Virus genome (UHGV): UHGV-1354558
Strand: one strand, 5' to 3'
DNA length: 39,910 bases
Source of the DNA: a virus
In this document: in pieces, positions 28,368-29,767 of the stretch
Layout of the letters: every line of letters begins with the position of its first letter
Position numbering within the stretch: the stretch's first letter is position 1
Notes under the pieces: model-generated
Database searches by the model: none
Told to the model about the DNA's origin: nothing
What the model saw: the letters and a program-made list of their open reading frames with translations, nothing else
Position numbers and translations under genes: made by a program

Positions 28368-28538
28368 TCATGGACGGCCTTGTTGTTTCAAAATATCCCA
28401 AAGCTTTTCGAGCAAACTTTTCATTCTTGGTTGTTTAAAGTCTGCTCCGGTTAAAATATTTTTTCGTGAATGCTGTACCGATAAAATCGGGTTGAAAGGG
28501 CGAACCGATGCCGCCCCTGCAATAGCGAACTGTTGCAT
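28368..28538 (-). CDS. cIII: CIII-like FtsH inhibitor
   Basis: 56 aa (MQQFAIAGAASVRPF...SLLEKLWDILKQQGRP) resembles lambda CIII (MQYAIAG...LLERI...LIDILNQPG). AAGGAG 6 nt upstream. The longer 28368..28643 ORF is rejected. Confidence 0.7.
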   Translation of the reverse strand: MQQFAIAGAASVRPFNPILSVQHSRKNILTGADFKQPRMKSLLEKLWDILKQQGRP

Positions 28539-28602
28539 AGGATGCTCCTTCTGTTTGATTGCATAACGAAAACGCCTCGAGTGAAGCGTTATTGGTATGC
28601 AT

Positions 28603-28628
28603 ATAAAAAAGCCCTCACACTGGAGGGC
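28603..28628 (-). terminator. intrinsic terminator upstream of cIII (tL1-like)
   Basis: Minus strand reads GCCCTC-cagtgt-GAGGGC followed by TTTTTTAT. Confidence 0.55.
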
Positions 28629-28764
28629 AAAGAAGATTTCCAATAATCAGAACAAGTCGGCTCCTGTTTAGTTACGAGCGACATTGCTCCGTGTATTCAC
28701 TCGTTGGAATGAATACACAGTGCAGTGTTTATCCTGTTGTTTATGCCAAAAATAAAGGCCACCA

Positions 28765-29016
28765 TCAGGCAGCCTTGTTGTAAATGTTGCAGGTATCAAG
28801 TAAGTAATTAGATGGAGCGCCATAAATTATGAATTCATCGTTTGTCGGGTCCATCTCCATCTCTTGGCCTATTGCCATTCTTGCGTCAGTGTCATCAGCG
28901 GCGAAGCATAAAACAGCCCACGCACCCATTGTTTTAAAAAGAACTGCAATTGGCTGTGGTTTTACTGAATTTGCGTTAGCGCGAAAATCATAAATCGCAC
29001 TTTCATGAAATTCCAT
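28765..29016 (-). CDS. hypothetical protein immediately downstream of N
   Basis: 83-aa acidic ORF, 9 nt downstream of N. Confidence 0.5.
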   Translation of the reverse strand: MEFHESAIYDFRANANSVKPQPIAVLFKTMGAWAVLCFAADDTDARMAIGQEMEMDPTNDEFIIYGAPSNYLLDTCNIYNKAA

Positions 29017-29024
29017 ATCTCACC

Positions 29025-29324
29025 TCAAATAAGTGGTTTGCTGCCTAATTTCATTTTCTGGCGACCAACACAAGTCACACCCATTTCACTGCGTGGCTTG
29101 CGGTAGTAAATACGGTTCTGTTTACGCTCGACTTCTTCTGCCTTCTTGCAGCGAAGGCTTCCGAGTGATGCTGCTTTGTCTGCTCTGACGCAACCAGAGA
29201 GCTTTAGCGCAATTTTTTGTGCCAGTCGCTGCTCTTGCATTGCCTGTTCACGTTGAGCCTGTCTGCGTGCTCTGCGGCGATTTCTGGCGTTATCGTCAGC
29301 CAGATATGTAATGACTACTGTCAT
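29025..29324 (-). CDS. N: N-type antitermination protein
   Basis: N-terminal arginine-rich motif (DNARNRRRARRQAQ) and a C-terminus (YYRKPRSEMGVTCVGRQKMKLGSKPLI) resembling lambda N (WYSKPGERGITCSGRQKIKGKSIPLI). GGAGG upstream. Confidence 0.75.
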   Translation of the reverse strand: MTVVITYLADDNARNRRRARRQAQREQAMQEQRLAQKIALKLSGCVRADKAASLGSLRCKKAEEVERKQNRIYYRKPRSEMGVTCVGRQKMKLGSKPLI

Positions 29325-29767
29325 GTTGACCTCCGATGATTGACTTTGGTGATTGGATGGCCGGTGCTGAATTCCGGCTTACTGGTTAGAGCGCCCGCAC
29401 TACCAGTGACGCTGTCTTGAGGCGCAGATTGGTTACTGCTTGCCATGAGCGCTGTTTATACATTGGTCGAGCATCAGCCTGCTCATTCATCCAATCCCAA
29501 AGCCAACTACTCTTTGACTCACACTCTCGCAGTGAGCGCGCTCATGCCCTTGAGTCTCTGCCGCTTCATCGCCGCTGATAACCGGTGCGCGTCTGGCATT
29601 CGCGCTGCTTTACCGGAGCTACTTTTAATATATTGACCCTAACCCGATGCTAAGCAGGCTCGCTCAATGGCGACTCAGGGCAGCATCATTACTGCTGCAT
29701 TGCCTTTCGGCTGCGGTCTAACCGCGTTAGTGCACCATTACGGCACCTCCTGTTTGGTTAAACTCAG

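Follow-up and report, generated by a model that had tools for sequence, protein, structure and literature searches.

PreS, the renamed LPR1, is an Hfq-dependent sRNA of phage lambda which is encoded between ral and ea10 and whose 3' end is the terminator tL2a (Silverman et al., bioRxiv 10.1101/2024.10.31.621285). Lambda produces it in the lytic cycle only. It activates dnaN translation in the host, has a repressive effect on alaS and helps the phage to replicate its DNA, and its Hfq binding, lytic expression and dnaN/alaS regulation are known for lambda PreS only (bioRxiv 10.1101/2024.10.31.621285). Northern blots gave bands of ~88 and 68 nt, with processing from 88 to 68 nt reported, and plasmid-encoded PreS beginning at +1, without the hairpin described below, is active (bioRxiv 10.1101/2024.10.31.621285). 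The 68-nt RNA is the abundant form. Neither the text nor the supplements of this preprint refer to a hairpin, a stem, RNase III or RNase E.

Among other sRNAs, DicF of the lambdoid prophage Qin/Kim is comparable: both are sRNAs of a prophage early operon, both come from a long transcript by endonucleolytic release (as we propose for PreS), and in both an intrinsic terminator is a possible 3' end. RNase E and RNase III reportedly free DicF from the polycistronic transcript of the dicB operon, and the RNase III site of DicF lies on the 3' side. The two differ in sequence, between which there is no similarity; accordingly, the Rfam DicF model gave no match. Hairpins processed by RNase III are also familiar from lambda and T7 (N-leader site, sib and T7 R1.1). 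ManS of Salmonella is reported to be another RNase III-processed sRNA (PMC11745405).

The window analysed here is the whole 39,910-nt stretch of UHGV virus genome UHGV-1354558, a lambdoid phage. Its PreS locus has in common with that of lambda the place in the pL operon, the terminator tL2a, the seed and the upstream hairpin; from PreS +1 to the end of the terminator stem (28689..28611) the two are identical, and only the U-tract differs (GGGCUUUUUU in the window, GGGCGAUUUUUU in lambda). The neighbours are different, being an H0090-type ORF and cIII in the window and ral and ea10 in lambda; ea10 is absent from the window phage. In lambda PreS/LPR1 as defined in the preprint, the hairpin falls 1 nt outside the sRNA.

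Location of the hairpin in the early-left operon

A first-pass annotation had reported a perfect hairpin, with a 9-bp stem and a 10-nt loop, at 28691-28718, and had placed it in the leftward early transcript between the N-proximal gene and a 'tL1-like' terminator. The arms are exactly as first described, GTGTATTCA (28691-28699) and TGAATACAC (28710-28718) enclosing the loop CTCGTTGGAA, and RNAalifold also returned the 9-bp stem. The assignment to the leftward transcript is correct too, since the hairpin lies on the minus strand of the early operon, 3' of an N-like gene and an 83-aa ORF. The features surrounding it are as follows.

29025..29324, minus strand: gene for an N-like antitermination protein (phrog_271, E = 3e-36), which marks the pL operon
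28765..29016, minus strand: 83-aa ORF occupying the place that ral has in lambda (VT2-Sakai H0090 family, phrog_2471; function unassigned)
28747..28776, minus strand: upstream terminator-like hairpin, 9 pairs (2 G.U) and a U-run, overlapping the stop codon of the 83-aa ORF
28668..28823, minus strand: 51-aa ORF across the hairpin (full-length match to phrog_31828, E = 7e-41)
28691..28718, minus strand: core hairpin, perfect 9-bp stem GUGUAUUCA/UGAAUACAC with a 10-nt loop
28571..28590, minus strand: third terminator-like hairpin, in the tL2a-cIII interval, AACGCUUCACUCGAGGCGUU followed by UUCGUU (HK106/HK629-type phages only, not lambda)
28368..28538, minus strand: cIII-like gene, the next downstream of PreS (phrog_550, E = 1e-22; HK106 annotation)

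The minus-strand order is thus N-like gene, 83-aa ORF, terminator-like hairpin (28776..28755), reported hairpin, intrinsic terminator (28628..28611 and T6), hairpin 28590..28571 and cIII-like gene. The order given by the first-pass annotation holds, but the terminator-like hairpin standing between the 83-aa ORF and the reported hairpin had been overlooked. An intrinsic terminator does lie downstream, 62 nt from the hairpin to its stem (28628..28611, followed by a T-run), but it is misnamed: phage O276 annotates the same terminator as tL2a, and the 'tL1-like' terminator is therefore tL2a. The interval between hairpin and terminator had not been recognised as a known Hfq-dependent sRNA, nor the terminator as the sRNA's own.

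The 83-aa ORF and ral, otherwise unrelated, have only their last codons (..NKAA) in common, which points to a mosaic junction inside the 3' end of the gene. The upstream terminator-like hairpin is kept in lambda, right after ral (lambda ~34077-34097). A probable nutL was noticed at 29370-29400 (minus strand), just upstream of the N-like gene, where GCGCUCUAAC is followed by the hairpin GCCGG-AAUUCAGCA-CCGGC; it is unlike lambda nutL, in keeping with an N protein whose N-terminal arginine-rich motif is different too.

Several identities were considered for the hairpin itself and rejected. Its stem is A+U-rich and is followed by GGAGCAAUGU and not by a U-run, and the terminator scan made no call, which excludes an intrinsic terminator. 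As to a nut or boxA element, CGCTCGTAA is one mismatch away from boxA, a degree of similarity found at chance frequency, hairpin type does not follow N type, and the real nutL of the window is located upstream of N. Coding by the 51-aa ORF was dismissed on the grounds that it has a stop codon in lambda and that the five hairpin types described below have no conserved frame in common; its match to phrog_31828 seems to be an artefact of annotation at the PreS locus, copied from one record of near-identical DNA to the next. HnrS and Pas, sRNAs of EHEC/EPEC prophages, are unrelated loci. No Rfam covariance model gave a hit at the gathering threshold, and a permissive search yielded chance-level matches only (E > 0.6).

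The window contains 4 independent perfect hairpins of at least 9 bp with loops of 3-12 nt; 100 dinucleotide shuffles gave 1.9 ± 1.6. By window statistics alone a perfect 9-bp hairpin is thus not above chance, and the case for function must rest on other evidence. No other copies of the hairpin and no complementary targets were found within the window.

PreS begins next to the hairpin

The elements of PreS were positioned by alignment to lambda and with the published primers.

28605..28689, minus strand: PreS (LPR1) homologue, 85 nt (lambda alignment and primers P810/P1103/P1104/P1107 of Silverman et al.)
28676..28689, minus strand: PreS 5' hairpin GAGC-AAUGUC-GCUC, invariant (RNAalifold and folds of all five types)
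28638..28654, minus strand: PreS seed core, the region deleted in the published delta-seed phage (primers P838/P839, P888/P889 and P970/P971)
28605..28628, minus strand: tL2a intrinsic terminator, the 3' end of PreS, stem GCCCUC-CAGUGU-GAGGGC and U6

Alignment gave 100% identity between window and lambda from ~28747 to 28611; the similarity starts at the last codons of ral and stops at the terminator. With a 261-bp query around the hairpin, 340 phage records were retrieved at ≥95% identity, lambda included. In the published primers LPR1 starts with GAGCAATGTCGCTCGTAACT, which corresponds to 28689 in the window, and ends with ...GGGCGATTTTTTA; on lambda the RNA so defined spans 34011..33924, exactly the reported 88 nt, as compared with 85 nt in the window. 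The published mutations M1 (28650-28648) and M2 (28640-28638) map in the seed core, and the M1, M2 and delta-seed positions are all intact. The window thus carries the counterpart of the 88-nt lambda sequence with its seed, in the pL operon and ending in tL2a with its U-tract. That terminator is annotated as 'tL2a' in phage O276 and as 'rho-independent terminator' in HK106, and the preprint concurs.

With PreS +1 at 28689, a position which is based on primer design and the ~88-nt northern band and may be in error by a few nt, and the hairpin ending at 28691, a single G separates the hairpin from the first nucleotide of the sRNA. The homology arm used for the full delta-lpr1 deletion ends with ...GTGAATACACG, so the hairpin was retained in the published construct.

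The first 20 nt of PreS (GAGCAAUNUCGCUCGUAAC, 28670-28689, minus strand) are near-invariant between E. coli and Salmonella and are missing from the abundant 68-nt form. The PreS 5' block of lambda and that of ST104 are identical at 22 of 24 positions. Loci were collected through this very block (see below), and the conservation of the first 20 nt is therefore partly a collection effect.

The hairpin is part of a longer helix

When the leftward RNA was folded, the stem was found to extend beyond 9 bp to ~18 helix steps (28724..28685).

28685..28724, minus strand: extended helix, consisting of UGC/GCA, A x A, C-G, U.G, 9 core pairs, U.G, U-A and C-G

Inside the '10-nt loop' U.G, U-A and C-G pairs form, and a CAAC tetraloop remains. 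At the base, a U.G and a C-G pair are followed by an A x A mismatch and three more pairs (UGC/GCA). The sense RNA therefore has 14 uninterrupted pairs, the A x A mismatch and 3 further pairs, and the 3' strand of the helix takes in PreS nt +1 to +5. The predicted energy of the 48-nt sense RNA is -24.2 kcal/mol (z = -6.1), and that of the opposite strand -22.5 kcal/mol. At the DNA level the structure corresponds to an inverted repeat with 22-nt arms (28681-28702 and 28707-28728).

Step 5, counted from the base, is an invariant C-G pair whose G is PreS +1, the start of the published 88-nt PreS. This G is located 13 nt from the loop and is flanked by the conserved A x A of step 4 and by step 6, a U.G or a mismatch. 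GAGC takes part both in the PreS 5' hairpin and in the lower flanking stem, so that only one of the two can form at a time; RNAalifold favours the former, the invariant PreS 5' hairpin (GAGC/GCUC).

Conservation and covariation of the helix

Conservation in related phages had been proposed as a check on the hairpin, and it is borne out by ~245 related loci, which in addition display covariation. The loci were gathered via the PreS 5' block and not via the hairpin itself (patterns GAGCAATNTCGCTCGTAAC, AATATCGCTCGTAACCAAAC and AATNTCGCTCGTAACNAAAC). A hairpin stands directly 5' of PreS +1 in 245 of the 246 genuine loci, the exception being O276, where it is disrupted by IS903. Five unrelated stem sequences were found, and one ungapped 18-step register fits them all.

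Type A (lambda type): GUGUAUUCA/UGAAUACAC, 141 loci
Type B: AAUGACCA/UGGUCAUU, 41 loci
Type C: AAUGCGGA/UCCGCAUU, 33 loci
Type D: AUAGCAGA/UCUGCUAU, 27 loci, with a variant AUAGCUGA/UCAGCUAU (L165 and L208) representing a clean A-U to U-A swap
Type E: UAUCGACU/AGUCGAUA, 3 loci

On at least five occasions, then, a new stem sequence was adopted with no loss of pairing and no shift in helix length or position.

To assess covariation, 46 distinct sequences were aligned with MAFFT, which placed the gaps in the loop. Paired cells amounted to 92.1%, compared with 71.1% in column shuffles (0/500 shuffles reached the observed value) and with 24-50% when the structure was slid by 1-3 columns. Changes on both sides were seen at nine pairs (142 cells), and the covariation score was 0.49 vs 0.13 for shuffled columns (again 0/500 reached the observed value). 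RNAalifold, to which no structure was supplied, arrived at the same 9-bp stem, every one of whose nine pairs shows compensatory changes. Some irregularities are conserved as well: step 16 is U.G in 43 of the 46 sequences, a U.G is found at step 6 in type A and at step 7 in types B-E, and step 4 is a purine-purine opposition (A x A in 39/47 and G x A in 5/47 unique sequences) which is paired in two singletons only. Step 17 is an invariant U-A. In two singletons (L076 and L258) steps 4 and 6 become Watson-Crick pairs, from the 5' side in one and from the 3' side in the other; this is the only covariation support for the lower stem, and it is weak.

The sense fold is more stable than that of the opposite strand in 43/43 variants. 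In DNA, or on the opposite strand, a conserved G.U pair would turn into an A.C mismatch, and the conserved structure is therefore that of the sense-strand RNA. The hairpin is, then, a conserved sense-strand RNA structure of the PreS gene unit, which comprises the helix, the sRNA body and tL2a.

In BLAST searches at lower stringency, homology with the 933W/H-19B group reaches as far as 28723, where the helix has its 5' foot, and that with the HK629 group as far as 28732. In the Salmonella P22-like phages ST104 and SEN22 it covers 28637-28689 only, ending exactly at PreS +1; alignment revealed different hairpins at the same place in these phages, immediately before the conserved GAGCAAT. Upstream of the helix 22 different sequences were counted among the 245 loci, the sRNA body exists in five variants, and the hairpin types have been exchanged between them. 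The helix thus moves together with PreS rather than with the gene upstream of it.

The hairpin together with PreS was found in 2239 of 5426 complete E. coli genomes (~41%), in up to 6 copies per genome and at 20 places on plasmids. Among the eight E. coli records listed, no annotated feature lies under the hairpin-PreS match. A scan of assembly contigs added little, mostly low-coverage contigs from unrelated taxa. The lambda PreS block was seen on contigs of Pseudoxanthomonas, Shewanella, Pseudomonas, Bradyrhizobium, Kitasatospora and Bacillaceae assemblies (including L232, L234, L236, L241-L243, L247, L249-L251 and L256), several of them 48.4-48.5 kb long, about the size of lambda; these are almost certainly lambda DNA contamination. 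Likewise, MW057783.1 ('Campylobacter phage CJLB-4', 48,361 bp), with hairpin-PreS at 33840-34002, 96.9% identity and lambda-like coordinates, is probably a mislabelled lambda or lambda derivative.

In phage O276 (L005, MH547045.1 28349-29263) an IS903 transposase element lies within the 5' arm of the hairpin, and PreS and tL2a are intact.

A proposed role of the helix in PreS maturation

No sigma-70-like promoter was found upstream of PreS in a scan of the window, and inspection revealed no consistent -10 element across the hairpin types. As there is no promoter-like site and PreS appears only when pL is active, PreS would therefore be cut out of the pL transcript. According to the model that we favour, PreS would have no promoter of its own and would be excised from the long N-antiterminated pL transcript, the helix serving as the structural signal which places the endonucleolytic cut at the PreS 5' end. 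A double-strand-specific nuclease of the RNase III type, the most plausible candidate, would cut at the imperfect foot of the helix, GAGC would then refold into the PreS 5' hairpin (GAGC/GCUC), and a second cut ~20 nt further on, probably by RNase E as the candidate enzyme, would produce the abundant 68-nt form. With a conserved stem-loop 1 base upstream of the PreS start, the helix most likely helps to excise PreS from the early-left transcript; that it directs or marks the very cut which creates the 5' end, we consider an even chance. The 'RNA processing signal' of the first-pass annotation gains support from the PreS 5' end 1 nt 3' of the hairpin and from the compensatory changes in the sense strand; the directing role is what we infer from these. 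The helix is not needed for PreS function and is not part of the active sRNA, since PreS expressed from +1 on a plasmid is active.

RNase III cuts within stems and accommodates ~22 bp, in agreement with the 22-nt arms of the lambda-type repeat. The presumed cut, which falls in the helix 13 nt from the loop and between conserved imperfections, resembles RNase III sites, where internal mismatches direct a single-strand nick. Compared with the lambda and T7 processing hairpins and with ManS, the PreS helix is similarly irregular, with conserved internal mismatches near the presumed cut, and this cut would likewise fall in the 3' strand, at the base of the stem, with 22-nt arms in the lambda type. 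It differs from them in that the conserved helix has only 17-18 steps, against the canonical ~22 bp of RNase III (in the lambda-type repeat 20 of 22 steps pair, and the lambda outer extension is not kept in the 933W-type context), and in that the cut-site pairs appear to fit the rules in the lambda type only. RNase E prefers RN↓WUU, and the sequence at the presumed cut, CACG↓GAGCA, is unlike this preference. In vivo, the two positions between the staggered cuts of RNase III are paired, usually with G-C (Altuvia et al. 2018). Under RNase III geometry these positions would be U.G and G-C in the lambda type, and C x U and U.G in types B-E; judged by sequence, types B-E would thus fit the in vivo rules poorly, and the lambda type alone would fit. 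A literature search on tL2a and RNase III processing of the pL transcript found nothing usable. Two further observations stand against the maturation model: O276, a complete phage genome, carries IS903 in the 5' arm of the hairpin, and the lower stem is almost without covariation and competes with the PreS 5' hairpin.

The main rival to a cleavage signal is an insulator or protector. In that case the hairpin would keep the folding of PreS independent of upstream RNA and might block scanning RNase E, so that the enzyme entering from upstream 5'-monophosphate ends would be stopped and PreS would survive. It is established that RNase E scanning is halted by RNA structure; the helix is stable, conserved and directly abuts the sRNA, the RNA upstream of it is AU-rich and single-stranded, and the replacement of stems is what one would see if any sequence were tolerated as long as it pairs. 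Protection leaves unexplained, however, the A x A of step 4, the C-G of step 5, the U.G of step 16 and the constant helix length, as well as the coincidence of the mature 5' end with the foot of the helix, and we regard it as possible but rather unlikely. An alternative which looks to the other side of the cut, namely that after downstream cleavage the hairpin would form the 3' end of the mRNA running from N to the ral-position gene and block 3'-to-5' exonucleases, would suit a stable stem without U-tract, like known 3' stabilisers, located downstream of the ral-position gene on the same transcript. It appears improbable, given the terminator hairpin (28776..28755) already present right after the upstream gene, and given that the hairpin stays with PreS through 22 upstream contexts, with homology breakpoints at its 5' foot.

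The first-pass annotation had also suggested a protein binding site. If the protein, of phage or host, bound RNA (a nut/boxB-like element or the site of another regulator) and the hairpin were not a nuclease substrate, the conservation of the apical steps 15-17 (A-U, U.G and U-A) and the boxA-like CGCUCGUAA 10 nt downstream of the helix would find a place. Yet the boxA resemblance is not above chance, 16 one-mismatch matches being expected in the window and 13 present; phages whose N proteins differ (lambda, 933W, HK106 and that of the window) have the lambda-type stem in common; loop sequences vary between types; and no Rfam family matches. All this makes such a site quite improbable. Binding of a dimeric protein to the palindrome in double-stranded DNA is disfavoured, and very unlikely in our estimation together with its companion, a functionless chance palindrome. 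A dimer could use a perfect 9-bp inverted repeat as its site and the window statistics by themselves are at chance level, but the conserved G.U pairs correspond to A.C mismatches in DNA, the sense-strand fold is always the more stable, and five unrelated stems keep a fixed position relative to PreS +1 with no matching change in a neighbouring gene for a DNA-binding protein. Chance is excluded by the 245 of 246 loci which keep the hairpin.

Within the maturation model, a more far-reaching version can be put forward tentatively, as doubtful at this stage: a dedicated maturation cassette may be made up of the helix together with the 20 invariant nucleotides at the start of PreS. GAGC would be tied up in the helix as long as the precursor is intact; structure-specific cleavage at the mismatched base of the helix would free it, and its refolding into the PreS 5' hairpin would yield an sRNA competent for Hfq and targets. 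Turnover of the stem is unusually fast, with five unrelated stems beside flanks that are 80-100% identical, reassorting with body types. If the cassette existed, the activity of the sRNA would be coupled to the processing of the antiterminated pL transcript, and stem turnover would reflect selection on the stem, e.g. escape from sequence-specific interference by the host or by rival phages.

Implications for the PreS system

The PreS locus was already known; as far as the literature found shows, neither the helix beside it, nor the covariation of that helix, nor the helix's coincidence with the mature 5' end had been described. The finding is a modest one, a refinement of the known PreS system and not a new kind of element. 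It extends the functional PreS gene unit by ~35 nt, a part which the published delta-lpr1 deletion retains. O276 is a natural or laboratory hairpin-disrupted phage that can be used for questions of PreS maturation. Annotation pipelines leave the PreS locus blank or call the spurious 51-aa ORF, although the locus is present in ~41% of complete E. coli genomes. Very few phage sRNAs have a role that has been demonstrated; that of PreS is to increase host DnaN and to assist lambda replication. Its production from the pL transcript has been undescribed so far, and the covarying helix gives a testable handle on its biogenesis.
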